The notes beneath the pieces were generated by a model, which was not told the DNA's origin, did no database searches, and was given only the letters and a program-made list of their open reading frames with translations. From contig JBECKX010000086.1 in the NCBI GenBank assembly GCA_040235515.1, positions 1 to 42,938 of the forward strand: a DNA stretch of 42,938 bases, read 5' to 3'. The position numbers were made by a program, and so were the translations under genes. Numbering within the stretch: position 1 is the first letter of the stretch; each line of letters begins with the position of its first letter. Below are positions 3,462 through 42,938 of this stretch, piece after piece. This DNA comes from Candidatus Zixiibacteriota bacterium (lineage in GTDB: Bacteria; Zixibacteria; MSB-5A5; CAIYYT01).

Positions 3462-3681
3462 TCCCTTTGTCGACGTCTCACTCATCGGATTATAGTTAAC
3501 GCCCCGGGTTTCCGACCGCAGCACATTCGCTGTTGCGGGCAGGGCAGCATTTTGTTTTGGCGGAAGCGACTCAGCACCACTATTTGTGCCTGCTTGACAG
3601 CGTCGTTGACTGAGAATGGTGAAGTCCGTTAGTCAAAGTCAGGCAGCAGATTGGACGAAATTCCGCAAGCCAAAAAATCCC

Positions 3682-3710
3682 TTGCTTTTCCCTGGGGTCT
3701 TTTATATGGT
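3682..3710 (+). promoter_or_regulatory. Putative sigma70 promoter for the lipoprotein triplet
   Basis: TTGCTT (3682-3687) - 17 nt - TATGGT (3705-3710), with an A-tract upstream. Confidence 0.4.
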
Positions 3711-3764
3711 GGCGTCTGTTATTTTTCAGGGCACATGGGGTTTATAGGATTTATGGAGGAGACG

Positions 3765-4817: not shown

Positions 4818-5014
4818 GTTGTCGCGATCGCGGCTGGGATCTGGTTACGGTCACAGCACGATTGCTGGCGCCCGAAACTCGCTAAGTGAATCGATAGTCG
4901 AATTGAAATATCTGGCTGATACACTTCATAGTTTGGATGATTTTGATACACCTGGTTATTGCGATTTTGGTTTTCCCAATCAGTGTGCCGGTAGAGGTAT
5001 CAGGGAGGAAATAG

Positions 5015-6328
5015 ATGCGTAAGTGGTATATGGTTGCCTTTTGTCTGATCACTGCTTTTGGCATCCTGGCAATGTTGGGTTGTGAGGGTGATGCCGGACA
5101 GCCCGGAAATCAAGGCCTGGTTGGTCCTCCCGGTGATTCCGGTATTGACCTGACAAAACTGCAGCCCGCTGATAGACCGATCGGAGTGGGGCTTACGAAT
5201 AGTTCGTTCAACGGAGTCGAGGGCGTCAAGTCGCTGTGGCTCACGTTTAATGAAGCGGCACGTGGTCGTCCCGACACACTGGCAGCTTCCCGCTTGGAAA
5301 ACCCGCCGCTTATCGATGGTATCGACGGAACCGAAGCCGAATGGGGCGAGAAGCAGTCGCGCGTCCGTCTGGCGTTTTTGAATCCCGATCCGAACGTGCT
5401 CGATCCTACCATCTATGATCTGGTGGCACGGGCCGGATACGATGATGAGAACGTCTACTTCTTCTTCTCATGGAAAGAAATCAATATCACTGTCAGAACC
5501 GAGGATGGCCGCGACACCACACTCGTGGACGCGATTCCCTCCCGCGCCGTCAGAGAACTTTTCTTCGACAACACGGCGCAGATTATAGATGATATCGATA
5601 CGTTGCAGGAAGGCGGCGGCGGTCAGGATCTGATCACCGATACAACCTTCTTCAAGTGGGTGAGAATCGATACCGTTAGCGCAGATACATTGATCTGCAT
5701 TGACAGTATTCCTTCCACGCCGGAGTTTGATTCCCTCTGCGTGCTCGCAAACGTTGTCGCCGATTCGTCTTTGCTCTGGCGTTCCTGGCGTGAGGGAGAG
5801 GATCGACTCGTCGTGTTCTTCAATGGCGCTGAGGACCCGGTCGCCAATTGGCTCGATCTCGCTTTCGCCGAGTTCTTCGATTTCCCGGGCGGTGCTAATC
5901 TGCCGGCTGGGTATGATGTCGATGTCTGGGCGTGGGGGTCTGGCACCTCCGACCCGGTGTATATCGCCGATGATTGGCATATCACTTCAAGCGGCAAGCG
6001 ACCCGACCTAGGTGCCCCGCCATACCTTGACAACTATGTGCTCCCAGATTCGACGCCGCGATTTATGCATTTTCGCGACCCGAACTATAAAACAGAATTG
6101 AATCTTGATACGGATCTTTTCCCGTTCTGGTACTATGACGCCGTTGGTTATTCATTCAGTGGATGGCAGAAGAACCGCGGCTGCTTTGTCGCGGGATATG
6201 TTACCACGATCCCATCCGGTAGCCGGGCAGATGTCTATGCAGCTTCCACCTTCGAATCCGCCACCGGTTGGGTGCTGGAATTGAAACGTGCCCGCAGGAC
6301 CAATAACGGTGATGACGTTGTTTTCTAG
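5015..6328 (+). CDS. Collagen-repeat lipoprotein with EB_dh/DOMON-like domain, paralog 2
   Basis: GGAGG SD. Lipobox MLGC, G-X-Y repeats, PLIDGIDG..EW, YDDENVYFFFSW, EDR, DVWAW and GSRADV...GWVLELKRARRT..DDVVF. Has a long acidic insertion. Confidence 0.7.
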   Translation: MRKWYMVAFCLITAFGILAMLGCEGDAGQPGNQGLVGPPGDSGIDLTKLQPADRPIGVGLTNSSFNGVEGVKSLWLTFNEAARGRPDTLAASRLENPPLIDGIDGTEAEWGEKQSRVRLAFLNPDPNVLDPTIYDLVARAGYDDENVYFFFSWKEINITVRTEDGRDTTLVDAIPSRAVRELFFDNTAQIIDDIDTLQEGGGGQDLITDTTFFKWVRIDTVSADTLICIDSIPSTPEFDSLCVLANVVADSSLLWRSWREGEDRLVVFFNGAEDPVANWLDLAFAEFFDFPGGANLPAGYDVDVWAWGSGTSDPVYIADDWHITSSGKRPDLGAPPYLDNYVLPDSTPRFMHFRDPNYKTELNLDTDLFPFWYYDAVGYSFSGWQKNRGCFVAGYVTTIPSGSRADVYAASTFESATGWVLELKRARRTNNGDDVVF

Positions 6329-6340
6329 GAGGATCCAGTA

Positions 6341-7477
6341 GTGACTCGCAAAACGTTTAAATACTCGATAATTTTCCTCGCTGCTCTCGGCTTGTTCGGG
6401 CTCTTGATTCTCGCCGGCTGCGAGGGTGTCAGCGGACCTCGAGGTGACAACGGTCCCCCCGGTGAAAATGGCCCCGACTACCAGGATCCGACACCGGAGA
6501 ATCGTTTCTTCTCGCTCGCCGTTACAAACAAGTCGATGGCCGAGCATAATGGTGCCCCGAAACTCTACCTCTCTTTCGATGGTGAGCACACGGCTGCCGG
6601 AGATACAGTGGTTTCGGTCAGACTGGAAGATACCGACCCGGTTCCGGCCGTCGATGGTGTCGATGGTGGCAGCCAGGAGTGGGCGGGCCCGGCCACTACG
6701 GTAAAGCTCTACAAGGCTGCCGGCACATTCAACTTCATCGAGGCTGCTACCGTACGTTCAGCTTTTGATGAGGAGTATGTTTACTTCCAGGTGAAATGGA
6801 CCGAGGTCGCTAATGAGCAGTATGGGCTCGAAGTGGGTCTTTCCGATCGCCCGGCTTACTTGATCTATCCCCAGGGTGGCACCGGCAACGCCGCCGTCTG
6901 GGACTATGAAGAGGGCAATGAAGACCGCGTGCTCCTGCTCTTTGAGATCACACCGGTCACACGCTATGCCTCAGATGGCTGCTTTGTGACCTGCCACACC
7001 GACGATGAAGCAATCGAGCGTAACTATCATGCAACTCGCGCCGGCGGCGAATGGATGGATGTCTGGATGTGGGGTGCGGCGCTGACGAACCCGACCGGTT
7101 ATCTGCGCGATCAATACATGACCAGCTCGCCCAGCCTGAACGTACTCGATGATAACGGACTGCCGCTCCTGCTCAGCAATATGACGCTCGAGCGCGATAA
7201 TCTGGGCGTGATCACACGGAGGCAGCCGACCTATCAGGCCCTCGGCGATCCCAACCTGAACTCCAGCTATCCGCTCTGGCCGTGGCAGATTGTCAGAGTC
7301 AGCACCAGCGGATGGGTTGCGGGATCTCAGGTCCCGGCCTTTATCTCGAATCCGAATCCGAGCAACAGCGCCGGCGATGTCGAAGCTCAGGGCACGTTTG
7401 ATGCCGATTCCGGTACCTGGACCGTTGAGATGCGCCGTGCACGCCGCACCGGCAACGGCGACGACGTTCAGTTCTAG
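6341..7477 (+). CDS. Collagen-repeat lipoprotein with EB_dh/DOMON-like domain and CX3CH motif, paralog 3 (putative cytochrome)
   Basis: AGGAGG SD and GTG start. Lipobox LAGC, G-X-Y repeats, EDR, GCFVTCH, DVWMW..TNPTG and GTWTVEMRRARRTG..DDVQF. Confidence 0.75.
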   Translation: MTRKTFKYSIIFLAALGLFGLLILAGCEGVSGPRGDNGPPGENGPDYQDPTPENRFFSLAVTNKSMAEHNGAPKLYLSFDGEHTAAGDTVVSVRLEDTDPVPAVDGVDGGSQEWAGPATTVKLYKAAGTFNFIEAATVRSAFDEEYVYFQVKWTEVANEQYGLEVGLSDRPAYLIYPQGGTGNAAVWDYEEGNEDRVLLLFEITPVTRYASDGCFVTCHTDDEAIERNYHATRAGGEWMDVWMWGAALTNPTGYLRDQYMTSSPSLNVLDDNGLPLLLSNMTLERDNLGVITRRQPTYQALGDPNLNSSYPLWPWQIVRVSTSGWVAGSQVPAFISNPNPSNSAGDVEAQGTFDADSGTWTVEMRRARRTGNGDDVQF

Positions 7478-27219: not shown

Positions 27220-29442
27220 GTGCGCACACCCGCATTGTATGCACTGCTGCTCTTCATCGCAGGCATACTGACAGGTGTGTACTTCGATATCCATGCCTTC
27301 ATCCTCTATTGCACCTGCGCTGTGGCTCTCGCTACAACATTGATTCTGCTTGCAGTTGGGAACACCCGGTTGGCGCAGTGGACATTGTCACCGGCCATCC
27401 TGATTGCCGGAATCCTCCTGACCCAACTACAGACAGGAGACTTTCCGAGCAATCATATCTCCAACTTCACCAATCTCTCCCACAAACTTGAGATCTGCGG
27501 GGTGATAACTTCAGAGCCTGATATTCGACCGGACAAGACGTACCTAACTGTTGCCGTCGACTCCATCGGCCGTGGTGACCGCCATATCCCTGTCTCGGGG
27601 CAATTGCGACTCAGAATTGCAGAGGCGACCAATCGCTTCAATTACCATGACAGGATCGAGTTCGAGTCGTGGCTGAACCGTCCCAACAGCGCACGCAACC
27701 CCGGTGCGTTTGATTATCAGCGCTATCTCGAAATCAGGGAGATACACGCCCTCGCGTTCGCCGGCAGCGCAGCCGAAATCACGCTGGTAAATTCCGGAGC
27801 GAGCGAACCGTTCATACGCACGATTGTCTCACCAGTCCGGGACTACATCGGCCGCGTCTTCGATCGCGATATGCGACCCCACCAAGCCGCGCTGCTGAAA
27901 GGCTTTCTGCTCGGCGACGTTCGTTTCATCCCGAGCGATCTTTACAGACGCTTCAAGGACACCGGGACTCTCCATGTCCTGGCGGCGTCCGGCGCCAACG
28001 TTGGCTACGTGGTTGGGGCGCTGCTTCTCTTCGGTCGGCTGCTTGGAATCCGCAGACGCTCTATCTATGCCCTCGCGATCGTCGGTGTGATCGTCTTCAG
28101 CTTCCTCGCATTCAATCAGCCCTCCGTGGTGCGAGCGGCTGTGATGGCGGTAATCGTCCTCGTAGGCAAACTGCTCCGCCGCGACGCCAACTGGATAAAC
28201 ACCATCTCGCTCGCCGGGCTGATCATCCTCGCCTTTCGCCCTCTCTACCTCTTCGATCTCGGCACCCAGCTCTCGTTTGCCGCAGCCTTCTCTTTGATAT
28301 TGTTCCTGCCGGCGATCGAGCCGTTACTGCCGGTAGCCAGACCCGGCACAAATCGGTTTATGCGCTACTTCCTCTTGATTTTCTGGAGTACTCTGGTCGC
28401 GCAGGTGGGAGTGCTACCGATCCTGCTCTTCCATTTTCAGACTGTGCCGCTCGTCAGTTTCCTCGCCAACCTCGTCGTGGTGCCACTGGTTGGACTGGTC
28501 GCTACGCTGGGAATAGTGCTGATCGCTTTCTCCGGCGTTCCCTACCTGAGTTCGCTTCTGGGTCACCTTTGCGGCGCCGCGATCGATCTCGTGCTCGGCT
28601 CCATCGATTACTTCGAGAGCCTCCAGATTCCACCAATCGAGATTGGGGCGCCCGATCTTCTGGTAGTACTGCTGTATTACCTGGTGATTCAACTCATCTA
28701 CCTCATTTTCACGCGCAGCCGGCTGGTAGGCTGGGTTACGTTACTGGTTGTTCTCCTGATAAATGTCGCGCTCTGGAAGCCGGTGGTGGCGGGCAACAAA
28801 TCGGACGGCAGCGTAACGGTTCTCGATACCTGGGACACTCCGACACTTGTGATTGCGAGTGGATCTTCCGAGACGACGCTGATAAATGGCGGGGGAGTAT
28901 ACCGGTCATTCGACAGGGGAGAGTCTGTCGTGCTACCTTATCTCCGCTATCGGGGAATCTCCGCGATCGACCGCTATCTGACAACCGACTGCGGCCCGGC
29001 CAATCAGCAATCGCTAAAGAGTGTTATCCTGGGACTCCAACCTCCGCTTACCCGTCGGTATGAGCCTGACCCGAATTCGACGGGGGGTTCGATAGATACC
29101 CTCTCCCCGTTTTCCTTTCTGCACATAAACCAAACAGAGATTGCGCTTCTCCTCGATCCGGGGAGTGTTCACGATTTGAGCAATCTGGTGCATGAGGTGG
29201 CGCTCCTCGTGATTACTCATGATTACGCCGACGAGGAACGACTCGGCAGGCTCGTCGAGTTGTTTCATCCCGAAACGGTGGTGATCTCCACCTACGCATC
29301 CCGCTATCGTAAACGAGATCAACTGGATCACTTGAGGAGCGTTTTCCCCGATATCGCCATTTACTCGGTTCGGGATCAGGGAGCGATTACGATTCAGATT
29401 CAGGATAAGGGTTACGAGGTATTGGAGATGTCCAATGACTGA
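27220..29442 (+). CDS. comEC: ComEC/Rec2 DNA-uptake channel
   Basis: DUF4131 region (NPGAFDY..YL), GTLHVLAASGANV, PSVVRA..M, GTQLSF and ANL..VP, plus a degenerate C-terminal MBL domain. AAGGAGG SD. Confidence 0.92.
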   Translation: MRTPALYALLLFIAGILTGVYFDIHAFILYCTCAVALATTLILLAVGNTRLAQWTLSPAILIAGILLTQLQTGDFPSNHISNFTNLSHKLEICGVITSEPDIRPDKTYLTVAVDSIGRGDRHIPVSGQLRLRIAEATNRFNYHDRIEFESWLNRPNSARNPGAFDYQRYLEIREIHALAFAGSAAEITLVNSGASEPFIRTIVSPVRDYIGRVFDRDMRPHQAALLKGFLLGDVRFIPSDLYRRFKDTGTLHVLAASGANVGYVVGALLLFGRLLGIRRRSIYALAIVGVIVFSFLAFNQPSVVRAAVMAVIVLVGKLLRRDANWINTISLAGLIILAFRPLYLFDLGTQLSFAAAFSLILFLPAIEPLLPVARPGTNRFMRYFLLIFWSTLVAQVGVLPILLFHFQTVPLVSFLANLVVVPLVGLVATLGIVLIAFSGVPYLSSLLGHLCGAAIDLVLGSIDYFESLQIPPIEIGAPDLLVVLLYYLVIQLIYLIFTRSRLVGWVTLLVVLLINVALWKPVVAGNKSDGSVTVLDTWDTPTLVIASGSSETTLINGGGVYRSFDRGESVVLPYLRYRGISAIDRYLTTDCGPANQQSLKSVILGLQPPLTRRYEPDPNSTGGSIDTLSPFSFLHINQTEIALLLDPGSVHDLSNLVHEVALLVITHDYADEERLGRLVELFHPETVVISTYASRYRKRDQLDHLRSVFPDIAIYSVRDQGAITIQIQDKGYEVLEMSND

Positions 29443-29600: not shown

Positions 29601-30791
29601 ATGAGTTTTACCGGGAATCTTAAAACCGTAACATTTCCTGATTTGCTGCAATTGTTTTCTGCCGGCAAGAAGACCGGTACTGTGACAATTATCCGCGGCA
29701 ACATCAAAAAGGAAATCATTTTCAAGAACGGGAATATCATCAGTGCCTCATCGCAGGACGCAGAAGAGGACTATCTGGGTCAGCTGCTCCTGAAGACGGG
29801 GCGCATCACCAAGAACGACCTGCAACGTGCGGTCTATATGCACAAGGGTTCGGGCAAGCGTATCGGGCAGGTGCTGGTGGAGATGAAGCTCATCTCGCGT
29901 GAAGAGCTTGGTATCTATCTCAAGCAGCAGGTCGAAGAGATTATCTACAACCTCTTCAGCTGGAAGGAAGGGGAATTCATATTCAAGGAGGGACAACTCC
30001 CGGCCAACCGCGAGGGCCTGGTCGAGCTCAACACTATGAATATAGTGATGGAGGGCACCCGCCGTGTTGACGAGTGGGATGAAATCCAGAAAGTCCTTCC
30101 GAACGATCACCAGATTCTGCGCGTGGCGTCGTCGCCGCAAACGAAAGCGGACGAGGTGACAATTTCGCTCGATGAATTCAGAGTTATCACCCTCATAGAC
30201 GGTCAGCGCACCCTTGCCGAAATCCTCGAATCCTCGCCCCTTGGTGAGTTCTCCACCTCCCGGGCGATTTACAAGTTGATGCTCTCGAAGCTTGTTGAGG
30301 TCTCAGGCGCGAAGAAGGCGGAGGTTGCTGATCCCAAGGAAGAGGACTCGCTCTTCTGGTTACTCCTCCGTGTTTACGCATCCGCGTTCACGCTGATTCA
30401 GCGCACCCTCGAACGCAAGCTCGGAACCGACAATGAAAAATTACAGGCAACTCTCGCCGGTTTCCGCAAGGGAATCTGGCAATATTTCAGCGGTGTGAAT
30501 CACGCCGATTTCCCGACCAGTTTCGAGTCGCTGAAGCGCACACTCAGCCGCACGCCGAAAGAGGTGCGCGCGCTCAAACTGATCGGCGGACTCAACCAGC
30601 TGCTCGAAGAGCAACTGGCTTTTGTCTATTCCTACCTCGGCAGCGAAGTCCGCAAGCAGGTCGCAGCCGAGATCAAGAAGGAAGTCGCGTTACCGCTGGC
30701 AGAGAGGCGTGAAGTGGATAAGAAGTATGACGTGGGGAACGATCTCTATCGCATCCTGCGCGAAATCAAAGTGACCAAGGAAGTCATGTGA
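29601..30791 (+). CDS. DUF4388 (PatA-N-like) domain protein with MshEN-like tandem motif
   Basis: MSFTGNL....PDLLQL....KKTG, I.FKNG.I.SA, LFSWKEGEF.F and IVMEG.RRVDEW. Confidence 0.85.
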   Translation: MSFTGNLKTVTFPDLLQLFSAGKKTGTVTIIRGNIKKEIIFKNGNIISASSQDAEEDYLGQLLLKTGRITKNDLQRAVYMHKGSGKRIGQVLVEMKLISREELGIYLKQQVEEIIYNLFSWKEGEFIFKEGQLPANREGLVELNTMNIVMEGTRRVDEWDEIQKVLPNDHQILRVASSPQTKADEVTISLDEFRVITLIDGQRTLAEILESSPLGEFSTSRAIYKLMLSKLVEVSGAKKAEVADPKEEDSLFWLLLRVYASAFTLIQRTLERKLGTDNEKLQATLAGFRKGIWQYFSGVNHADFPTSFESLKRTLSRTPKEVRALKLIGGLNQLLEEQLAFVYSYLGSEVRKQVAAEIKKEVALPLAERREVDKKYDVGNDLYRILREIKVTKEVM

Positions 30792-30798
30792 GGATCGT

Positions 30799-31167
30799 AT
30801 GAGAAAACTGACTCTCTTAGCGATTCCGGTAATTCTGATGCTCTCTCCGCTGCAGCTGATGGCGCAGGCGGGGGTGATGGATGTCTCCGCGGTTGATGTC
30901 GTCGTCGATGTCCTGCTGCTGGTTGCCGGGCTCGTTTGTTTCTCGCTTTGCCTCAAGGTGTTCAGTCTGCTGCGTGGCGGCGAACTCTCACCCGGCTGGC
31001 AAATGCTCGCAGTTTCATTCCTGATTTTCTCGATTGGCCAGGGATTGGGCCTGCTGATCGCGCTCGAATTCATCGCGATGCCGAAGAATGCTATTAGCGC
31101 GCTTAACGTCGTAGCGCTCTTCATGATCGTGTTTGGCGTCGCGAAGATAAAGAAGAGTTTGACCTAA
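30799..31167 (+). CDS. Small multi-pass membrane protein of unknown function
   Basis: Signal-like N-terminus plus three hydrophobic helices. GAGGA SD. Operonic position. Confidence 0.7.
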   Translation: MRKLTLLAIPVILMLSPLQLMAQAGVMDVSAVDVVVDVLLLVAGLVCFSLCLKVFSLLRGGELSPGWQMLAVSFLIFSIGQGLGLLIALEFIAMPKNAISALNVVALFMIVFGVAKIKKSLT

Positions 31168-31192
31168 TAACCTGATTCTCAGGGCGTTGATA

Positions 31193-32071
31193 ATGGAAAC
31201 AGCCACTCTCGCGGATCGCATCGAGAAATGCGAACGGATTCTCAAAGAGAATTCCAATTCACAGATCTTTGCCGCACTGGCAGATGCATACCGTGCTAAT
31301 GGAGATTTGGACCAGGCATTTCGTGTGTGCCGCCAGGGGCTAAGGGTGCATCCCGAGTATGGGGCAGGACACCTCGTGATGGCACGCATCAACTATGAGC
31401 GGAAGATGTACGACTGGGCGGAACAGGAGCTTCTCGAGTCGGTCCGGCTCGATGGCGAGACACGCGCCTCGGAGCAGCTCCGCGTGGAGATCATGATGGC
31501 CAAGGGCCAACTCGATCGTGCCGAACAAGCCGTTAAGACCCTGCGGGGCAAAGGCGTCAGCCCGCTGATGATTCAGGACCTGGGACAACGATTGGAAAAG
31601 CTACGGCGCGAACAAGCCAGACGGCGCGCCGATTCGGGGGATACCATCAACGGAAACACGCTGGCAGGTTCACCGATGCCGAGCTCCGGTGGCAGGGCTG
31701 TCGAGCCGACCCCGGAACTCAAACCCCTGAGCCTCTCCGAGGTACTCGACCAGTTGTCGGAGGTGCAGGGAGTAATCGACCTGATCTGCGCGCGCACCAA
31801 CGGTGAAATCGTTGATAGCCGCGGTCACTGCAAACGTGACCCCGTGGAGATGGCGGCCTTCGGCGTCGAGATGTTCAATGCCGCCAATACCGAGGATGCA
31901 CACAAGGTGTTCGGCAATCCCGAGCAGATCGTGATTGAGACGGAGAATGAGTTCCTGATGATAATGAAGTTGCGTCGGTATGACCTCGTACTGACATGCT
32001 CTAAGGATGTAAACTTGGGCTCCGTGCGGCTGAAGCTCGATATGCTGGTCGAGCGGCTGCAGGAGAACTAA
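31193..32071 (+). CDS. TPR + C-terminal roadblock/LC7 domain protein
   Basis: FAALADAYR..GDLDQA..VCRQGL..HPEY (TPR). C-terminal GV.......NGEIVDS...MAAF...EQIVIETE...VNLGSVRL (roadblock). Confidence 0.75.
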   Translation: METATLADRIEKCERILKENSNSQIFAALADAYRANGDLDQAFRVCRQGLRVHPEYGAGHLVMARINYERKMYDWAEQELLESVRLDGETRASEQLRVEIMMAKGQLDRAEQAVKTLRGKGVSPLMIQDLGQRLEKLRREQARRRADSGDTINGNTLAGSPMPSSGGRAVEPTPELKPLSLSEVLDQLSEVQGVIDLICARTNGEIVDSRGHCKRDPVEMAAFGVEMFNAANTEDAHKVFGNPEQIVIETENEFLMIMKLRRYDLVLTCSKDVNLGSVRLKLDMLVERLQEN

Positions 32072-32087
32072 GAACGGAGTAACTGGA

Positions 32088-33035
32088 ATGGCACTTTCAG
32101 GACGAGAGACTAGACATATCGCGCTGGTAACCTTCATCATGGCTGCATTGCCGATGTTGGTTTTCCCACGTACCCTCGGTTTCGAGTTTGAGATATCGCT
32201 CTTCTTCTACGTCGTACTCGAACTCGCCTACTTCACGGTCGTGTCGTGGGTTCGTAACAGCAAACTTGAAACCGGTCAGAAGATCAGTGCCGCCGGGCTC
32301 TACCTGTTCGGCAGGCTGCTGCTCTCATTCGTTTTCTTTGTCTACCTGCTGATGATGGAGAGCATCACGGCGGGAGCTGCCTGGATCGCCGCCTTCAGTG
32401 GCTACAAGCTGTCGCTTCTGCTCTTCAGCCTGACAGCCCCATTCCTCTACGGCTCCTCGATCCAGACGATCTTCGGTGGCGGTCGGCGCGGCAAGATTCG
32501 CCGCATTCGTCCGTCGACCCGGCAGATCATTACCTCCGATTCGCAGCGGATGCCGTCGCGCTCCAGCCTCTCCGGTTTTCGGCCGGCGGAACCTGAAGCG
32601 CCGAAAGCCAACCAGGATTTTCTCGCGCGCTCCTTCGACGACGCGGTTCAGCATGTCGGTGACTATTCCGGCGTGCAGTGCGCGATGCTGCTCGATGGCG
32701 AGGGTTTGCCGGTGGCGGGCTGGAGCCGTGGTCAGTTCAACCCTGAAGATTGGGCGGCGCTTGCCCGCCTTTTGATAGATCAAGTCGATGATACCTGTTC
32801 GCGTGGTGGCGCTCAGCCTGTTGAGATGCTCGAGTTTCGTTCGGGTCAGCAGCGCTTCTACCTCTATCGTGTCAACGATATGTGGCTGATGTCGATCGCC
32901 GATGCCGCCTCGGACGAACTGGAAAAGATCCGTGTGCATCAGGCCGCAGAGATGATCACACGGCGTTGTAACGAAAGATATGCACATGTCTATATGACTG
33001 AAGCAGGGAGATCATATGCGGGAAGTACTGTCTGA
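32088..33035 (+). CDS. Membrane-anchored roadblock/LC7 domain protein
   Basis: About four N-terminal TM helices, a basic linker, then SGVQCAMLLDGEGLPVAG...WAALA (roadblock). Confidence 0.7.
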   Translation: MALSGRETRHIALVTFIMAALPMLVFPRTLGFEFEISLFFYVVLELAYFTVVSWVRNSKLETGQKISAAGLYLFGRLLLSFVFFVYLLMMESITAGAAWIAAFSGYKLSLLLFSLTAPFLYGSSIQTIFGGGRRGKIRRIRPSTRQIITSDSQRMPSRSSLSGFRPAEPEAPKANQDFLARSFDDAVQHVGDYSGVQCAMLLDGEGLPVAGWSRGQFNPEDWAALARLLIDQVDDTCSRGGAQPVEMLEFRSGQQRFYLYRVNDMWLMSIADAASDELEKIRVHQAAEMITRRCNERYAHVYMTEAGRSYAGSTV

Positions 33036-33351
33036 AATCAATAAGACAACCGGTGTGACCGGCAGCATGCTGGTCGGAAACGACGGTATCGTGATCGCGT
33101 CGGACTTGAACACGCGACTCGATGAAGAAACCATGGGAGCGCTGGCCGGTTCGATCAGCTCAACTGTCTCGAAGAGCCTCGAACGTCTCGATTCGTCGCC
33201 TTTGTCGCAGCTCACCATCGAGGCGGATGACGGCAAGCTCTTCATCACGCAGACCCCGGTCGGCTTCCTCGTTGTCACCGCCGAAGACAAGGTGAACATG
33301 GGACTGATCAGGCTGGAAATCAAGAACGCTGTCGCGCAGATCGGAATCTAA
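33016..33351 (+). CDS. Stand-alone roadblock/LC7 (MglB/MglC-like) protein
   Basis: GVTGSMLVGNDGIVIAS...GALAG...QLTIEADDGKLF...VNMGLIRLEI. Overlaps the upstream gene by 20 nt. Confidence 0.88.
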   Translation: MREVLSEINKTTGVTGSMLVGNDGIVIASDLNTRLDEETMGALAGSISSTVSKSLERLDSSPLSQLTIEADDGKLFITQTPVGFLVVTAEDKVNMGLIRLEIKNAVAQIGI

Positions 33352-33410
33352 TGACGCATCCTGTCGGATTACATCAGGCGTGCATCAATCAAGAGGAACG
33401 GGATTAACAA

Positions 33411-34631
<1,221 letters not shown>

Positions 34632-34641
34632 GAGGTCTGAA

Positions 34642-35133
34642 GTGGCTGGCGACAAAATGGTCGTGTATTGGGACGACACCGAAAAGATCGACACGACGAT
34701 GACCAAGCTTCTGAAAGGCTCGGAAGCAAAGTGCGCGTTGTTGGTCGATAAGGACGGACACCTGATCGCGCGGCATGGGTTTACGCAGACTCTCGACACC
34801 ACTGCGCTCGCAGCGCTGATGGCCGGAAGTTTTGCGTCAACCGCTGAGATTGCCAAGCTGGTAGGTGAGCCGGAATTCTCGGTTCTGTTCCATCAGGGTA
34901 AGAAAGACCACATCCACATGAGTCTGGTCAATGAACGCTCAATCCTGGCGGTCATTTTCGACGACCGGACAACGATCGGTATGGTCAGGCTTTACGCCAA
35001 AGAAGCAACCGATGAGTTGCGCAAGAACTTCGAAGCGAATCTTCAGAAGGGCAAGAATGACGACGAGGGATTGTCGGATGAGTTCACCGCCTCGGCCGAA
35101 GACAAGCTAGAGGATATTTTCAGAGACTCTTAA
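34642..35133 (+). CDS. mglB: MglB roadblock GTPase-activating protein
   Basis: LLVDKDGHLIA, LAAL.AGSFA.T..IAKLVGE.EFSVLFHQG, FDDRTTIGMVRL and an acidic C-terminal helix (EDKLEDIF). AGGAGGT SD. Confidence 0.92.
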   Translation: MAGDKMVVYWDDTEKIDTTMTKLLKGSEAKCALLVDKDGHLIARHGFTQTLDTTALAALMAGSFASTAEIAKLVGEPEFSVLFHQGKKDHIHMSLVNERSILAVIFDDRTTIGMVRLYAKEATDELRKNFEANLQKGKNDDEGLSDEFTASAEDKLEDIFRDS

Positions 35134-35245
35134 CAGAAGAGACTCCCGGGGAGTTTCGCAGAAAGACTCCGACAGGGACTCCGGGAGCGGGACGAACTCT
35201 CCGCGCTCGGAAGAGGATTACTTTTAGGCAATACCAGGAAGGAAC

Positions 35246-36970
35246 ATGCCGAACCCCAGAGAGCTAGGGACGATGCTGGTTGACGCCGGTAAGATTACCG
35301 ACGAGCAACTGGAGAAAGCGCTAGAGCAGATCGAGAAGAGCGGTGGAGGTCGCCTCGAGCAGGTACTGGTGTCGCAGGGCGCCGTGCATGACGAGGAAGA
35401 ACTCACCTCTTTCATCGGGAAACAGCTCAATATCGGAGCGGTACGCCTCTCCGACCTTGAGCTCAATCCCGACGTGGTCAAGCTGATCCCGCAGGATATC
35501 GCGCGCAAGTTCAACGTCATTGCGGTAAGCAAGTTGAACAAGACGCTCGTGGTGGCGATCAGCGACCCGAACAATATCTATGTGCTCGACGCCGTGAAGT
35601 TCATCACGGGGTGTTCCGTCCAGCCGGTGATCTCGCCCGAGCAGGCGATTTCAAAGGCGATTGAGCATTACTACGCCGATTCGGCGCAGTACACGCAGAT
35701 CCTCAAGGGCCTGGAGGATTCCGAGCTTGAAGTCATCAGCGCGGGCGATGACGAGGTCAACGAGCTTGATCTGCAGTCGGCTGTCCAGGACAAGCCACTC
35801 GTCAAGCTGGTTGATTCGATTATCAGCGAAGCGATTCGCAAGGGAGCTTCCGATATTCATATCGAGACTTACGAGAAGAAAATCCGCGTGCGTTACCGTA
35901 TCGACGGTGAACTGATGGAGATGGCGCCACTGCCATTCAAGTATCGGGCGGCGATCGTCAGTCGTGTCAAGATCATGGCTGACCTCGACATTTCCGAACG
36001 CCGCCTGCCGCAGGATGGCCGCATCAAGATCAAGGTCGGCGATCGTGCCGTCGATCTGCGTGTGTCGGTACTCCCGACGATTTTCGGCGAGAAGGTCGTG
36101 ATGCGAATTCTCGACCCGAAGGCGCTGATGCACGACCTTACCAAACTCGGATTTCCGAAACTGGCGCTCTCCAAATTCGAGGCCGCCATCAGGTTGCCGT
36201 TCGGGATCGTGCTCGTTACCGGCCCCACCGGATCAGGAAAGACGACCACGCTGTACTCGGCGCTGAAGACGATCAATCAGCCCGATGTCAATATCATGAC
36301 TGCCGAGGACCCGGTTGAGTTCAACTTTGAGGGAATCAACCAGGTCGCCGTCAGATCAGATATCGGACTGACCTTTGCCGCCGCACTGAGATCGTTCCTG
36401 CGTCAGGACCCGGATGTGGTCATGGTGGGTGAGATTCGAGATGGTGAAACCGCGGAGATCGCCATCCGCGCCGCGTTGACCGGTCACCTCGTGTTCAGCA
36501 CGCTCCACACCAACGACGCACCCTCGTCGATCAACCGTTTGATCGATATGGGTATCCCGAACTACCTCGTGGCGAGCGCGACAAAATTGATCATGGCGCA
36601 GCGTATGATTCGCTGCATCTGTAAGTCATGTAAGGAAGAAGTAAAGACCGATCCGGAAGTTCTGCTGAACCTGGGAGTTCCGGAAGCGGAGATCCCCACC
36701 TTCAAGACCTATGAAGGCAGGGGCTGTTCCGAGTGCAATAATACCGGTATGTCCGGTCGTTCCGGCCTCTTTGAGGTGATGCCGATCACACCCGCGATCG
36801 AACGCCTGATCCTCGACGAGGCATCCGCCCCGGTGATCCAGGCGCAGGCCCTCAAGGAGGGTATGCTGACCCTCCGGATGGCCGGCATCGAAAAGATCAA
36901 GATGGGAGTAACTACCATCGATCAGGTGCTCGCCGAGACGTCTCACGCCGGTATCGACGAACCTGAATAG
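35246..36970 (+). CDS. pilB: Type IV pilus assembly ATPase PilB
   Basis: ASDIHIE, ERRLPQDGRI, GPTGSGKTTT, LRQDPD, TGHLVFSTLHTND and a tetra-Cys Zn motif. Confidence 0.95.
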   Translation: MPNPRELGTMLVDAGKITDEQLEKALEQIEKSGGGRLEQVLVSQGAVHDEEELTSFIGKQLNIGAVRLSDLELNPDVVKLIPQDIARKFNVIAVSKLNKTLVVAISDPNNIYVLDAVKFITGCSVQPVISPEQAISKAIEHYYADSAQYTQILKGLEDSELEVISAGDDEVNELDLQSAVQDKPLVKLVDSIISEAIRKGASDIHIETYEKKIRVRYRIDGELMEMAPLPFKYRAAIVSRVKIMADLDISERRLPQDGRIKIKVGDRAVDLRVSVLPTIFGEKVVMRILDPKALMHDLTKLGFPKLALSKFEAAIRLPFGIVLVTGPTGSGKTTTLYSALKTINQPDVNIMTAEDPVEFNFEGINQVAVRSDIGLTFAAALRSFLRQDPDVVMVGEIRDGETAEIAIRAALTGHLVFSTLHTNDAPSSINRLIDMGIPNYLVASATKLIMAQRMIRCICKSCKEEVKTDPEVLLNLGVPEAEIPTFKTYEGRGCSECNNTGMSGRSGLFEVMPITPAIERLILDEASAPVIQAQALKEGMLTLRMAGIEKIKMGVTTIDQVLAETSHAGIDEPE

Positions 36971-37007
36971 TTGAATTCGTACTGTATGTCCCTTTCTAAT
37001 AGAGGAG

Positions 37008-38099
37008 ATGGTGATGATTAACCTGAGGGAACTGTTGGAGATTCTGCTGGAGAAGAAGGGATCCGACCTCCATTTGTCGGTCGGTTGCCCGCCGCAGATT
37101 CGTGTCGATGGCAAACTGCAGACCCTTGATATGGACCCGCTGACACCTGACATCACCAAAAAGCTTGCTTACAGCATGATGTCCGAGAAGCAGAAACAGC
37201 GTTTCGAGGAAAACAACGAACTCGATATGTCGTTCGGTATCGAGAATATGAGTCGCTTCCGTTGCAACGTCTTCACGCAACGAGGCAACATCTCGGTGGC
37301 GTTACGTCAGATTCCTTTCAAGGTGCCGACTTTCGAAGAGCTTGGCGTCGACAAGACAATCGTGGAAATGGCCAACCTGCCGCGCGGACTGGTGCTCGTG
37401 ACCGGCCCCACCGGTTCAGGCAAATCGACCACGCTCGCGGCGCTGATCGACAAGATCAACCGGGAGCGCCACGCACACATCCTTACCGTCGAGGATCCGA
37501 TCGAGTACCTGCATCGCCACCAGTCATGTCTGGTCAATCAGAGGGAGGTAGGCGCCGACACACGTTCGTTCGCGGCGGCGCTGAAGTACGCCCTGCGACA
37601 GGACCCCGATGTCTGTCTCATCGGTGAGATGCGTGATCTGGAGACCGTGTCCGAGGCACTCAACATCTCCGAGACCGGTCACCTGACCTTTGCGACCCTG
37701 CACACCAACTCCTGCGCGGAGACGATCAACCGCGTGATCGACGTCTTTCCTGTTAACCAGCAGGAGCAGATTCGCGTCACGCTCTCGTTCGTGTTGCAGG
37801 GTGTGGTGTCGCAGCAGCTGGTGCCGAAGATCGGTGGTGGTCGCGCCCTCTGCACGGAGATCATGGTGTGTACACCGGCGATCAGAGCGCTGATCCGCGA
37901 TGACAAGATCCATCAGATTTATAGCATGTTACAATCGGGCCAGAAGTACGGTATGAAAACGATGAATATGTCTCTGGCCGACTTATACCTGAAGCACAAG
38001 ATTACGATAGGCGAAGCAATGGCGCGGTCATCGAACGTTCAGGAACTGAACGAGATGCTTTCACGCGTCCAGTCTGGTCAACCGACCATGGCACGCTGA
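37008..38099 (+). CDS. pilT: Type IV pilus retraction ATPase PilT
   Basis: GSDLHL, GPTGSGKSTT, EDPIEYLH, NQREVG, ETGHL...TLHT and AIRALIRD (AIRNLIRE-like). Confidence 0.95.
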   Translation: MVMINLRELLEILLEKKGSDLHLSVGCPPQIRVDGKLQTLDMDPLTPDITKKLAYSMMSEKQKQRFEENNELDMSFGIENMSRFRCNVFTQRGNISVALRQIPFKVPTFEELGVDKTIVEMANLPRGLVLVTGPTGSGKSTTLAALIDKINRERHAHILTVEDPIEYLHRHQSCLVNQREVGADTRSFAAALKYALRQDPDVCLIGEMRDLETVSEALNISETGHLTFATLHTNSCAETINRVIDVFPVNQQEQIRVTLSFVLQGVVSQQLVPKIGGGRALCTEIMVCTPAIRALIRDDKIHQIYSMLQSGQKYGMKTMNMSLADLYLKHKITIGEAMARSSNVQELNEMLSRVQSGQPTMAR

Positions 38100-38120
38100 A
38101 GTCGATGAACGGAGGTCGCA

Positions 38121-39320
38121 ATGCCGGTATTTGAATACAAAGGTAAGACCGTTACCGGCTCGCCGGTCGAAGGCGAGCTGAAGGTCAAGGATCGCGGTGA
38201 GCTGGAGCGCATTCTGCGCCGCAACCGCATCCTGGTTGACAAGGTCAATAAGAAGCCGTCTCAGATCACCATCAAGATCGGTTCCGGCATCAAGAAAATC
38301 CACGTTTCGCGCTTCACCCGTCAGTTCGCGACGATGATCGGCGCCGGTCTGCCAATGGTGCAGTGTCTGGAGATCCTCTCGAAGCAGATGGAAGCCCCGG
38401 AATTCCGGAAGGTGATTACTGAGATCAAGGAAGCTGTGTCATCCGGTTCGACCCTTTCCGAAGCGATGAAGAAGCACAACAAAGTGTTCGACGACCTTTA
38501 CGTCAACATGGTTGAAGCCGGTGAAATGGGTGGTGCACTCGATACGATCCTCGTGCGACTCGCCAACTATCGCGAGAAGGCAGACGCTCTCGCCCGCAAG
38601 ATCAAGGGTGCGATGGTTTATCCGGCGGTCGTCTCGATCGTGGCGACCGGTGTGACTATCGCGATGTTGACCTTCATCGTGCCGATTTTCGCCAAGATGT
38701 TCGAGAACCTCGGTGCCGAACTCCCGGCCCCCACGCAGTTCATCCTGGCGATCTCCGAGATCATCCAGTCATACTTCCTGCTCGGAATCGCGTTCGTCGT
38801 TGCCGTGATAGTCGGTTTGAAGTTGATGCTGCGCAACGAGGATGGTCGATTCTACTTCGACAGGTTTATGCTGAAATCGCCGGTGTTCGGTAACCTGATT
38901 CGCAAGGCTGCGGTCGCCAGGTTTACGCGAACGCTGGGAACCCTGATTCAGTCAGGTGTGACCATTCTTGACGCCCTGGAGATCACGGCCAAGACAGCCG
39001 GCAACATGGTGCTGCAGCGTGCAATCAAGAAATCGGTGCTTTCGATCGCGGAGGGTGATACCATCACCAATCCGCTCAAAGACTCCGGCGTGTTCCCACC
39101 GATGGTTATCCAGATGATCGGCGTCGGTGAGAAAACCGGTGGTCTCGACGACATGCTCAGCAAGATCGCTGATTTCTACGATGAGGAGGTTGACGCCGCC
39201 GTCAGCGCCCTCACTTCGCTGATCGAACCGGTGATCATCGTCTTCATGGGTGTGGTAATCGGTGGTATCCTTATCGCCATGTACCTCCCGATGTTCGACA
39301 TCATCGGTCAGATCAACTAA
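38121..39320 (+). CDS. pilC: Type IV pilus platform protein PilC (T2SS F family)
   Basis: FTRQFATMI.AGLP, AGE.GG.LD, AMVYP, GEKTG.LD.ML..IADFYDEEV and EP..I....YLPMF. Confidence 0.95.
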   Translation: MPVFEYKGKTVTGSPVEGELKVKDRGELERILRRNRILVDKVNKKPSQITIKIGSGIKKIHVSRFTRQFATMIGAGLPMVQCLEILSKQMEAPEFRKVITEIKEAVSSGSTLSEAMKKHNKVFDDLYVNMVEAGEMGGALDTILVRLANYREKADALARKIKGAMVYPAVVSIVATGVTIAMLTFIVPIFAKMFENLGAELPAPTQFILAISEIIQSYFLLGIAFVVAVIVGLKLMLRNEDGRFYFDRFMLKSPVFGNLIRKAAVARFTRTLGTLIQSGVTILDALEITAKTAGNMVLQRAIKKSVLSIAEGDTITNPLKDSGVFPPMVIQMIGVGEKTGGLDDMLSKIADFYDEEVDAAVSALTSLIEPVIIVFMGVVIGGILIAMYLPMFDIIGQIN

Positions 39321-39371
39321 ACTCGGGTCGCGACTCGAATCCACCCGGGAGATCACATTTCGAGAAACACT

Positions 39372-39405
39372 CGGCCACCCTTGTCTTGACAAGGGTGGCC
39401 GTTCT
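39372..39405 (+). terminator. Perfect 14-bp hairpin between pilC and pilS (terminator-like)
   Basis: CGGCCACCCTTGTC-TT-GACAAGGGTGGCCG followed by only a weak T tail (TTCT). Confidence 0.5.
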
Positions 39406-39459
39406 CATGCAGTCGGCCGATTAGTAACAATAGGGAAGGATTTCAGGTAACACGGACCG

Positions 39460-41205
39460 GTGACGACAATGGTTAAGCGTAGAAAGCTGAAAGAAGAACT
39501 CCGCAGCTTCTGGTTCATTCCGCTGCGCCTCTCGATCTTCCTGCTGCTCTTCGGAGCCGCCTTCCTCGCGCGCGGAAATCAGGAAGCCGTTTTCTGGCCG
39601 TTCCTTTGCTACTCGCTGGCGACACTGGTGTTCCTGTTCGCGATCGAGGTCGACGCCCGCTTCTTCCGACCCGGCTTCCTCCAGTTCATGATCTTCGTGC
39701 ACTTCGTGTTCGAACTGATCGCGGAAGGCGCGATCCTGAGCAAGTCAACCGCACTCACTTCGCAATATTCGATACTCTTTCTCCTCACGATTGTCTCGGC
39801 GAGTCTGGCGTACAAGCTGGCCGGAACCCTAACAATCGCGACGCTCGCATCGATCACTTATGCCTTCACATCGAGTTTCAACGAAGTCTTCGAGTCGCTC
39901 GACACCGTAACGCTGGAGACACTCAAACAGGCGCTGCAGACGAATGATGAGGTGTTCTACGCCATCTTCCTGCACGTATGCACATTCTACCTGATTGCAT
40001 TCATCTCGGGATTCTTAGCTCAGAAATTGAGGGCGAAGGAGGGCGAGCTGTCGCAGGCATCTCAGGTGCTCGAGCGTGTACAGCTTGACACCGACGAGAT
40101 ATTGCTGAATCTGCATTCCGGTCTTATCACAATCGACAGCATCGGTCGAGTCGTCTACTTCAACCGTGCGGCGGAGGCGATCCTCGGCTACCGGCAATCC
40201 GAGGTTCGAGGACGGCATTTTCTCGACATCTTCAACGACCAGATGCCCGATTTCTGTGAGCAGGTCCTCTCGGTATTGAAGGATGCCAAACCGAATATCC
40301 GCACCGAAGTTGAGATCATGACTCCGGCGGGGGAAGTCCTTCCGCTGGGGCTAACGGCTTCCGTGCTCGGTGATCAGAGGATCGGTGTGCGTGGTGTGGT
40401 CGCGATCTTCCAGGACCTGACGCAGGCGAAGGAGATGGAGAACGCCCTGATCAAAGCCGACCGGCTGGCTGCCGTGGGTGAGTTGTCGGCACGCATCGCC
40501 CACGAAATCCGCAACCCGCTAGCATCGATTTCCGGTTCCGTCGAAGTTTTGCGGAAGGAGATTGAGGTAGGCGGCGACAACGCTCGCCTGATGGAGTTGA
40601 TCGTCAAGGAATCGGAGCGGCTCTCGCGCGTGCTGAACGACTTCCTCAACTACGCGCGCCAGAGACCGGAGCGGTCAGACAAAGTTGAGTTGGTGTCGCT
40701 GCTCAGTGAAGTCACGGAGTTGTTGAAGAACTCGATCAACATGCCCGCTAAGGTGGAACTCCACCTACACACGCCGGCCAGTACGGAGTATGTAGTGGGT
40801 GACGAGGATCAAATCAAACAGATCATCAACAATCTCGTGACCAATGCTATCGAAGCGGCCAACCCAGAGACCGGCCAGGTCAATGTCTCGATCTGCGAGA
40901 ATCCCGACGACGAACGCCATCCTGCGTCGCGCTGGGTTGAAATCCAGGTGACCGACGACGGCGCCGGCTTCGGCGAGGATGTCAGAAGACGCCTGTTCGA
41001 ACCATTTTTCTCGCGCAAGAAGGGCGGCACCGGGCTCGGTCTCGCAATCGTCAAACGCTGTGTCGACAACGTAAGAGGTGAGATTGAAGTCGAATCGGCC
41101 AGCGGAGCCGGAACGCGCTTTCGGGTCTATCTCCGTCGTTACCAGGCGAGTCGATCAGAGGCAGAGGAAGAGCCGCAGACATCTCAAGCGGTCGAGACTC
41201 CCTGA
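39460..41205 (+). CDS. pilS: PilS-like membrane PAS sensor histidine kinase
   Basis: TM N-terminus, PAS (FNRAAE.ILG), H-box AHEIRNPL, N-box NL..NA and G boxes D.G.G / FEPFFS / GTGLGL. Follows pilC. Confidence 0.8.
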   Translation: MTTMVKRRKLKEELRSFWFIPLRLSIFLLLFGAAFLARGNQEAVFWPFLCYSLATLVFLFAIEVDARFFRPGFLQFMIFVHFVFELIAEGAILSKSTALTSQYSILFLLTIVSASLAYKLAGTLTIATLASITYAFTSSFNEVFESLDTVTLETLKQALQTNDEVFYAIFLHVCTFYLIAFISGFLAQKLRAKEGELSQASQVLERVQLDTDEILLNLHSGLITIDSIGRVVYFNRAAEAILGYRQSEVRGRHFLDIFNDQMPDFCEQVLSVLKDAKPNIRTEVEIMTPAGEVLPLGLTASVLGDQRIGVRGVVAIFQDLTQAKEMENALIKADRLAAVGELSARIAHEIRNPLASISGSVEVLRKEIEVGGDNARLMELIVKESERLSRVLNDFLNYARQRPERSDKVELVSLLSEVTELLKNSINMPAKVELHLHTPASTEYVVGDEDQIKQIINNLVTNAIEAANPETGQVNVSICENPDDERHPASRWVEIQVTDDGAGFGEDVRRRLFEPFFSRKKGGTGLGLAIVKRCVDNVRGEIEVESASGAGTRFRVYLRRYQASRSEAEEEPQTSQAVETP

Positions 41206-41299: not shown

Positions 41300-42937
41300 A
41301 TGCGCATACTTGAAGATCTGCAATCATGCTCTTACCGCTCGATCCTGCCGGTGCTGTTCGTCACTCTGCTGCTGTTGGCGATTGTCGGCTGTTCGCGGGA
41401 CGGAAATCATGAAGCTGAGGAACGGAAGAGAAGCGAGGAACAATCGATGACCCAGCACAATAACGGCTCAGGTGATGGCAACCCGAAGCGGAATCATCTT
41501 GCGAATGAATCCTCGCCATACTTGTTGCAGCACGCCGATAACCCGGTCGAATGGTACCCGTGGGGGGAAGCCGCACTCGCGAAAGCAAAGGCCGAGGACA
41601 AGCCGATCTTCCTCTCGATAGGTTATTCCGCCTGCCACTGGTGCCATGTGATGGAGCATGAGTCGTTCGAGAATGATACCATCGCCGCCATCATGAACGA
41701 ACACTTCGTCAATATCAAGGTGGATCGCGAAGAACGTCCCGACCTCGACGATATCTATATGACCTTTGTGCAGATGACGACCGGCGGCGGTGGATGGCCG
41801 ATGTCGGTGTTTCTCACACCCGAAGCCAAACCGTTTTTCGGTGGGACTTATTTTCCGCCTCGTGATGCGCACGGACGCCGGGGCTTTCCTAACATCCTGC
41901 TGGCGGTCGCGGAGGCATGGCGAGAGGACAGAGCCAGTATTGTCGAGAGCGCCGATACCGCGGTCGGTTACCTCCAGCAGACCCTCTCACGGAGTCGGGC
42001 ATCAGAGTCGTTTGCCGAAGAGTATCTCGATTCGGCAGTTCAGCAGCTGACCCGGCGCTACGATCCGGTCAACGGCGGGTTCGGTGACGCCCCCAAATTC
42101 CCACCAAGCTTCGCACTGGTCACGCTGTTGAAGGAGTACAAACGCACGGGCAACGATCGCCTGCTCCAGATCGTCACGCACACGCTCGACAAGATGGCCT
42201 ACGGGGGGATGTATGACCAACTCGGCGGTGGATTTCACCGCTACTCCGTCGATGCGCGCTGGTTGGTCCCCCATTTCGAAAAAATGCTTTATGACAATGC
42301 CCAACTCGCAGTGGCTTACTTCCAGGCGTACCGTGCAACCGACAGGCAACTCTACAAGCGCATCGGGCAGGATATCCTCGACTACGTAATCCGCGACATG
42401 ACAGATCGTGATGGGGGCTTCTATTCCGCCGAGGATGCCGACAGTGAAGGGGAGGAGGGCAGGTTTTACGTCTGGACCCCGGAGGAAGTGATCGCAGTGC
42501 TCGGCGACAGGGCGGGCAAGATGTTTTGCGATTACTATGGAGTCACGAACGGCGGTAACTTCGAGGGCAACACCTCCGTGCTCCATGTGCGGGTTACGCC
42601 TGAGGAATTCGCGAAACAGTACAATGTCTCAGTCGATGAACTCCTCGACTCCCTCAATTACTCACGTCGTGAATTGCTGGATGCGAGGAACAAGCGCATC
42701 CATCCCAACAAAGATGATAAAGTTCTCGCCGACTGGAACGGGCTGATGCTCTCGGCATTTGCCGGCGGTTACCAGGTAACAGGTGAAGACAGATACGCCG
42801 CCGCCGCGACGAAATGCGCCGAATTCATAGAGTCACGGATGATCGTTCAAGGCGACCTGATGCGCGTCTACCGCGATGGCAAGACCAAGCAACCGGGGTT
42901 TCTGACCGACTACGCCGCCGTGATTAATGGCCTGGTG
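41300..42937 (+). CDS. yyaL: YyaL/SSP411 thioredoxin-domain (DUF255) protein, 3'-truncated by window edge and absent from the ORF track
   Basis: Manual translation gives [67 protein letters not shown] and [12 protein letters not shown]. Starts at ATG 41300 (lipobox IVGC) or ATG 41447. Confidence 0.92.
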
Positions 42938-42938
42938 G

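Follow-up and report, generated by a model that had tools for sequence, protein, structure and literature searches.

A block of MglA, roadblock and PATAN genes adjoining the type IV pilus motor genes in Zixibacteria

We analysed a 42,938-nucleotide stretch of DNA (the window) from a Candidatus Zixiibacteriota bacterium, contig JBECKX010000086.1, in which seven regulatory genes, from a PATAN-domain gene to mglB, directly precede the type IV pilus genes pilB, pilT, pilC and pilS. These seven genes behave as one unit. Gene content, gene order, folds, catalytic motifs, a C-terminal tail on MglA and the joint loss of the block in one lineage were all observed, and we think it probable that the seven products form a membrane-tethered MglA/MglB/MglC-like switch that controls the extension ATPase PilB through the PATAN protein. 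The features of the region are as follows.

27220..29442, + strand: comEC, DNA-uptake channel (Pfam Competence and DUF4131), upstream in most relatives and outside the 29601-41205 span
29601..30791, + strand: PATAN (DUF4388) protein, 396 aa, with PATAN core, MshEN-fold hairpin insert, winged helix and helical bundle; proposed PilB adaptor
29766..29945, + strand: MshEN-fold insert of the PATAN protein (residues 56-115), cyclic di-GMP (c-di-GMP) motif degenerate; NF053729 at 45.9 bits against a cut-off of 38, and a match to 5HTL
30799..31167, + strand: small membrane protein, 122 aa, with a signal-peptide-like N-terminus and three hydrophobic helices
31187..32071, + strand: tetratricopeptide repeat (TPR)-roadblock protein, about 292-294 aa; TPR matches, family-level hhalign and an AlphaFold2 (AF2) model
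32088..33035, + strand: transmembrane (TM)-roadblock protein, 315 aa, with 3-4 N-terminal hydrophobic helices, a linker and a predicted roadblock domain (about 185-275)
33016..33351, + strand: stand-alone roadblock protein, 111 aa, MglC-like; Robl_LC7, with D23-G24-I25 invariant in 42/42
33411..33998, + strand: MglA G domain, group 1 (R53 finger, TVPGQ, NKRD); phmmer E 1e-81 to M. xanthus MglA, motifs invariant
33999..34568, + strand: MglA linker, of low complexity and varying in length, dominated by P/S/T/A/Q/E; predicted from its composition to be disordered
34569..34631, + strand: MglA C-terminal polybasic/aromatic tail, a predicted membrane-targeting helix resembling the E. coli MinD membrane-targeting sequence (MTS)
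34642..35133, + strand: MglB, canonical GTPase-activating protein (GAP) type, C-terminal helix present; profile E 6e-45 to M. xanthus MglB, R116 invariant
35246..36970, + strand: pilB, type IVa extension ATPase; TIGR02538 at 709 bits against a cut-off of 676
37008..38099, + strand: pilT; TIGR01420 over cut-off
38121..39320, + strand: pilC; T2SSF/PilC (Pfam, NCBIfam)
39460..41205, + strand: pilS-like sensor kinase; 6TM_PilS (weak), PAS, HisKA and HATPase

The eleven open reading frames (ORFs) between 29601 and 41205 are co-directional and follow the order given in the first-pass annotation, which their Pfam and NCBIfam identities bear out. Gaps from the PATAN gene to pilS measure 7, 19, 16, -20, 59, 10, 112, 37, 21 and 139 bp, and comEC lies 158 bp upstream of the cassette on the same strand. 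DUF4388, which is the PATAN domain, is matched at E 7.6e-34 (116.8 bits against a Pfam cut-off of 25), and Pfam Robl_LC7 at E 2.9e-13 in the 111-aa protein and 6.5e-14 in MglB; PilB and PilT both exceed their NCBIfam cut-offs, and the top NCBIfam match of the T2SSF/PilC protein is the myxobacterial PilC, below its cut-off. The nearest named records are Candidatus Zixiibacteriota, and the best 120 of 516 matches in the homolog search are all Zixibacteria-level, confirming a non-myxobacterial host. In a quick PilB tree, which included four of six intended outgroups, some Ignavibacteria-titled records fall inside the same PilB clade.

To assess conservation, we compared 56 loci, comprising all 36 relatives with an MglA match and 20 loci hand-picked across families, two of them from genomes without MglA; as all are kin within one phylum, the counts are not independent trials. 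The full eleven-gene order is present in 46 of 56 (two with frameshifted pil genes being counted as present), so the linkage of the mgl genes to pilB and the gene order both hold across relatives. Six of the other loci are unbroken parts cut by a contig end, two have the cassette and pilB without pilT-pilC-pilS, and two are cassette-less. Metagenome loci of at least 5 kb (among 80) agree with this order over the part that each covers. MglA itself was found in 37 of 41 relatives and 149 of 151 genomes of the phylum. One genome (G074) yielded neither the block, including comEC, nor the orthologous pilB, although pilM is present; this gap is a probable assembly artefact. Assembly error is also the probable cause of the frameshifted pieces in which pilB, pilT and pilC (L076) and pilB and pilS (L087) occur.

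The gap between mglB and pilB has a median of 40 bp and a minimum of 5, and is at most 50 bp in 33 of 48 loci, which fits a single transcript without proving one. In the source genome it measures 112 bp and folds into two hairpins; a conserved terminator at this position was rejected because the gap of a same-genus relative is only 35 bp. Scans for promoters (4 found, 4.8 expected) and terminators (14 found, 10.6 expected) stayed at chance level. Adjacency could in principle be no more than inherited gene order without functional coupling, as all loci come from one phylum and comEC is an equally conserved neighbour. We consider this very improbable, given gaps as short as 5 bp, an order kept while the accessory cassette proteins diverged to about 22-30% identity, and the precise removal of exactly these seven genes in one lineage.

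That lineage is genus g6 (G021, 96% complete; G030, 88%), in which comEC is followed directly by pilB-pilT-pilC-pilS. MglA, Robl_LC7 and DUF4388 were not found anywhere in the g6 genomes, where pilM was found, and the small membrane protein is missing from both loci (L109 and L110) along with the rest of the cassette. In the quick tree, g6 PilB sits on a long branch nested among cassette-bearing families (Shimodaira-Hasegawa-like approximate likelihood ratio test 96), so that the cassette-less state reads as loss. Because g6 keeps pilBTCS, the motor can evidently exist without the module. The opposite rearrangement is seen in family f6 (L097, L118), where pilTCS has moved away and the cassette stays with pilB, indicating PilB as the partner.

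The g6 PilB sequences also differ from those of cassette bearers. At columns conserved at 90%, a threshold chosen post hoc and the only setting, with non-conservative changes split by domain, at which the signal appears, they carry non-conservative changes at 6 of 54 positions in the N-domain and 1 of 211 in the ATPase domain; the N-domain range among 64 cassette-bearing PilBs is 0-4. At a 97% threshold the cassette-less PilBs do not stand out. G64 of PilB is invariant in 64 of 64 cassette bearers and altered in g6. PilB residues 62-68 look like a roadblock motif, but mimicry was rejected, as outgroup PilBs reveal this stretch to be a variant of the usual segment.

MglA, the only one in the source genome, is 406 aa long instead of about 195 aa and consists of a G domain, a low-complexity linker and a basic/aromatic tail. 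The G domain is close to that of M. xanthus MglA; G1, R53, T54 and TVPGQ (T78-Q82) are invariant in 43 of 43 aligned MglAs, and the N, K and D of G4 are kept. Group 1 MglAs are defined by an intrinsic Arg finger by the G2 Thr and by TVPGQ in G3 (PMC4316618). By these criteria the protein is a group 1 MglA, as the first-pass annotation had it, with apparently intact catalytic motifs, and mglB of the co-evolving type follows 10 bp downstream. The same survey excluded MglAs of more than 240 aa under a single-domain size criterion (PMC4316618); a length of 406 aa exceeds that limit and marks a variant, not an exclusion from group 1, and long group 1 MglAs still stand in its Table S2, such as Fibrobacter Fisuc_0226 (313 aa, mglA-mglB order).

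The tail follows the linker, and many homologs terminate in KKRGFFKRLFG, closely resembling the targeting sequence KGFLKRLFGG of E. coli MinD (PMC5471200). All 113 distinct complete MglA homologs are 313-649 aa long, and a tail is present in 111 by a loose rule and 106 by a strict one, both rules having been written after the tails had been seen; among 1,776 long frames of the source genome, the loose rule passes 108 and the strict rule 8. At ten Planctomycetota-type loci, MglA instead ends in a transmembrane helix in seven cases and an amphipathic helix in two, the last being cut. In the top 150 representatives at 50% identity, MglA carries a basic/aromatic tail in 49 cases and a transmembrane tail in 21; the other 80 end differently, often in a C-terminal beta-strand-like segment. 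As clustering over-represents long MglAs, these are not frequencies. Tail types group by clade in a FastTree of G domains. That two kinds of predicted anchor occur at the same position is the strongest argument for anchoring as the function of the tail.

Long MglAs are not confined to this phylum. A second clade of 440-720-aa MglAs (P0020-P0065 subset) has a similar basic/aromatic tail, and many others (P0080-P0149 subset; L064, L065), including some from Acidobacteriota, end in a conserved segment of alternating hydrophobic residues resembling a beta-strand. One of ten tailed MglAs could be placed by cluster look-up, in Planctomycetota, and a plasmid search gave a single MglA match, from Deinococcus.

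Four roadblock domains surround this GTPase, as the first-pass annotation had claimed: two are recognized by Robl_LC7 in single sequences, and the C-terminal domains of the two fusions are recovered by family-level profiles, the TPR fusion also by its model. MglB retains R116, corresponding to the MglC-binding R115, whereas E84 is replaced by Q. The 111-aa protein carries the D23-G24-I25 loop, and the signature of MglC is an acidic residue 26 with Ile28 in the beta1-beta2 turn (PMC4719450, PMC7949163); the same studies describe mglA genes that are paired with one MglB gene plus one from the MglC clade. The D-G part of the loop is common to all roadblocks. The profile match to MglC (7CT3) is weak, at E 0.49 compared with 1e-13 to an Asgard roadblock, so we term the protein MglC-like only.

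As a single sequence, the TPR-roadblock protein matches TPRs and, in its roadblock part, only LAMTOR5 (E 0.023), and the TM-roadblock protein matches Robl_LC7 at E 1.3e-4, just short of the cut-off. At family level, comparison with the small roadblock by hhalign yields 98.9% and 95.5%, respectively, and Robl_LC7 matches 22 of 43 TPR-roadblock and 16 of 40 TM-roadblock family members, which confirms both roadblock domains at the level of profiles. The AF2 model of the TPR-roadblock protein (predicted local distance difference test (pLDDT) 92) superposes on the folds of Ragulator, an Asgard roadblock and MglB at about 2 Å root-mean-square deviation (rmsd); the matches to LAMTOR2 and the Asgard roadblock reflect a common fold. 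TPR-roadblocks also occur in Planctomycetota cassettes, with a lead to Gemmatimonadota from Atlas clusters at 0.96-0.97; for the TM-roadblock outside Zixibacteria, Atlas gave only leads below 0.9, none convincing.

The TM-roadblock had been proposed as a membrane-anchored landmark. A membrane-anchored roadblock does appear to be encoded, but 6 of 52 homologs lack the membrane part, so it cannot be an essential landmark. Families f8 and f16 (L094, L102, L117, L119, L123, L127) have a protein shrunk to 133-171 aa with no membrane helices, and in the PilB tree both group with the cassette-less lineage. The further statement that the roadblock fusions had no characterised equivalent went too far: the D-G-I loop is of MglC type, mglA with two mglB genes and PATAN has been catalogued, and TPR-roadblocks exist in Planctomycetota. 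Elsewhere in the source genome and unlinked to the cassette, two adjacent minus-strand ORFs of 209 and 266 aa (L131:4751-6117, G000:C58) have no Pfam match over cut-off; the 209-aa ORF weakly matches the roadblock part of the TPR-roadblock family (E 1.4e-7; Robl_LC7 E 0.034) and may be a fifth, divergent roadblock.

The PATAN protein, the only DUF4388 protein of the source genome, is a candidate for the link to the motor. Work on Synechocystis showed that its PATAN domain binds both PilB1 and the N-terminus of PilC and suffices for phototaxis reversal, and also noted PATAN-GspE_N fusions and PATAN genes near mglAB (10.1101/2021.06.11.447907). The AF2 model (pLDDT 84, predicted template modelling score 0.51) contains a winged helix at about 169-237 and a helical bundle at about 243-390; the bundle has generic structural matches only, and Foldseek with the whole model gave no match at E <= 0.001. 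The insert superposes on MshE (5HTL) with Z 10.3 and rmsd 2.9 over 60 aligned residues. The MshEN consensus for c-di-GMP binding is a tandem RLG...G...Q motif, of which little is kept in 40 homologs: the first Arg in 2, the first Gln in 3, the second Arg in 9 and the second-motif Gly in 5. We therefore dropped c-di-GMP sensing by this protein as the main input, and with these residues mostly lost the modelled insert is more likely a protein-contact surface. The MshEN motif of PilB itself is likewise degenerate. The small membrane protein encoded next to the PATAN gene occurs in every locus that spans the cassette and matched no known family.

On the reading that we favour, the tail would anchor MglA to the inner membrane, with the long linker as a flexible tether, and the MglB dimer, a close homologue of the Myxococcus protein, would act as its GAP. 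MglB may also serve as an exchange factor, a role proposed for it in M. xanthus (PMC13408092). The MglC-like small roadblock, with the TPR- and TM-roadblocks, would recruit MglB to membrane sites, a job resembling that of RomR. Active MglA would then act via the PATAN protein, docking on the N-terminal region of PilB and/or on PilC as the cyanobacterial PATAN does, and pilus extension would be limited in place, most likely to one pole, or in time. The spatial (polar) part is the least secure element of this explanation.

Several observations weigh against it. The changes in PilB come from one lineage and one event on a long branch, in which PilT and PilC are likewise the most divergent, and give a hint of a docking surface at most. 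The loose tail rule, devised with the tails in view, passes 108 of the 1,776 background frames, and the TM-roadblock lacks its membrane part in the six homologs described above. The genome also encodes flagellin and CheW. In Planctomycetota, a PATAN/TPR-roadblock/roadblock/mglA/mglB cassette lies away from pilBTC in L054 and L057, as judged from 9 kb of downstream flank, which implies that such a cassette can serve other outputs.

The Planctomycetota arrangement bears on a second alternative, in which the block is a general envelope-polarity module that happens to be an operon-mate of pilB, its direct output being an adhesion, secretion or division machine. The cassette with a larger PATAN-TPR-beta-propeller protein away from pilBTC and the wide spread of PATAN-mgl neighbourhoods would suit this, but we judge it improbable, as the cassette stays beside pilB throughout the phylum, including where pilTCS has left, the PilB N-domain shifts upon cassette loss and there is a precedent for PATAN-PilB binding. 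The Planctomycetota-type cassette itself (L051-L055, L057, L058, L061-L063) consists of an about 1100-aa PATAN-TPR-beta-propeller protein, TPR-roadblock, roadblock, mglA and mglB, and in L063 a GAF-domain PilB-like ATPase is encoded downstream.

A third alternative retains the pilus as the target and removes the geometry: the genes would form an on/off or timing switch for pili, used for instance in competence or in attachment to surfaces. Neither front-rear polarity nor reversal would be involved, and MglA would simply be kept near the membrane-bound motor. Co-directional comEC upstream of most loci, a signal input suggested by PilS and the MshEN-fold insert, and an anchored MglA that may not relocate from pole to pole like the soluble Myxococcus protein all speak for it. 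So does a genome search for two short motifs of RomR and RomX, which found no match, a weak test run with no profile and no positive control. We think this unlikely: g6 keeps comEC and pilBTCS without the cassette, so uptake-type pili seem independent of it, the characterised group 1 MglAs work in spatial control and the c-di-GMP residues are degenerate.

With PilM and pilins encoded elsewhere in the genome in addition to PilB, PilT and PilC, the set is that of a type IVa pilus system. The genome contains pilM-pilN (at a contig end), a second PilT-family ATPase and a separate cluster resembling a type II secretion system. The gene pilR is not downstream of pilS; at another locus (L132; G000:C66:11515-14057), the gene for a sigma54-type response regulator precedes two type IV pilin genes, a pilR-pilA part standing apart from pilS.

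The closest known system is the polarity module of Myxococcus xanthus (MglA, MglB, MglC, RomR/RomX and RomY, with the effectors SgmX, FrzS and SopA). Both systems have group 1 catalytic motifs, an MglB orthologue, a second roadblock with the MglC loop, a TPR component and a type IVa pilus motor in the order pilB-pilT-pilC-pilS, which we take to be the Myxococcus order as well. Unlike in Myxococcus, the Zixibacteria MglA is 313-649 aa long with a long tail and a membrane-targeting end, mglA precedes mglB, two roadblock fusions are added, PATAN is part of the block and the linkage to pilB is direct. MglA, MglB and MglC act in Myxococcus pilus polarity (PMC9481161, PMC11580455). Chloroflexi rows of Table S2 in PMC4316618 place PATAN beside a group 1 mglA and two roadblock genes, as here; the tail, the TPR and TM roadblocks and the pil linkage are not described there among 60 of the 112 group 1 rows.

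Other comparisons concern parts of the system. In the cyanobacterial PatA-type proteins PixE and TaxP, PATAN is the output to PilB and PilC, as we propose here, but their input is a receiver (REC) domain, whereas the Zixibacteria protein has no REC and instead an MshEN-fold insert, a winged helix, a bundle and a neighbouring GTPase. MinD and FtsA, like MglA, carry a basic/aromatic C-terminal helix on an NTPase, an analogy with no homology claimed. Ras polybasic tails and Rag-Ragulator, in which several roadblocks, one of them membrane-anchored, surround a small GTPase, are likewise analogies only (in part PMC9481161), the GTPase here being MglA and not Ras or Rag. A wider reading, which we put forward tentatively and think less likely than not, is that tailed MglAs may be an overlooked class of self-anchored Ras-like GTPases, the anchor being an amphipathic helix both in Zixibacteria and in a second clade, and a tail-anchor helix in Planctomycetota. 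The Zixibacteria MglA might sit on a membrane-bound multi-roadblock platform like Rag on Ragulator, form a self-organising MinD/MinE-like membrane pattern with its GAP and without RomR, and signal through PATAN directly to PilB.

Two further features of the window are unrelated to the cassette. Downstream of pilS, 41300-42938 encodes a thioredoxin-like DUF255 protein, truncated where the contig ends, which occupies this position in family f1 only. Three paralogous genes in tandem at 3651-7477 encode predicted lipoproteins (388, 437 and 378 aa) that have short collagen-like Gly-X-Y stretches near the N-terminus and a common C-terminal motif, and the third carries a CxxCH heme motif.

In the literature searched, with subscription journals and preprint supplements outside its coverage, we found no description of a tailed MglA, of the TPR- and TM-roadblock fusions or of the pilB linkage. 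The block is a real, phylum-wide variant of the Myxococcus module. Characterised bacterial MglAs reach the pole via protein partners, and in the assays of PMC7949163 neither MglB nor MglC was seen to bind liposomes; a self-anchored GTPase would differ from this. A large MglA group with a predicted anchor was dropped from the reference survey by its 240-aa filter, and that group bears on how small-GTPase/roadblock switches became membrane-based. PATAN genes beside mglAB, reportedly described by Makarova in 2006, have been seen since then, and PATAN has separately been shown to bind PilB. With the GTPase, PATAN and PilB in one block and a natural loss lineage as a control, the old hint of a PATAN-mglAB connection becomes testable.

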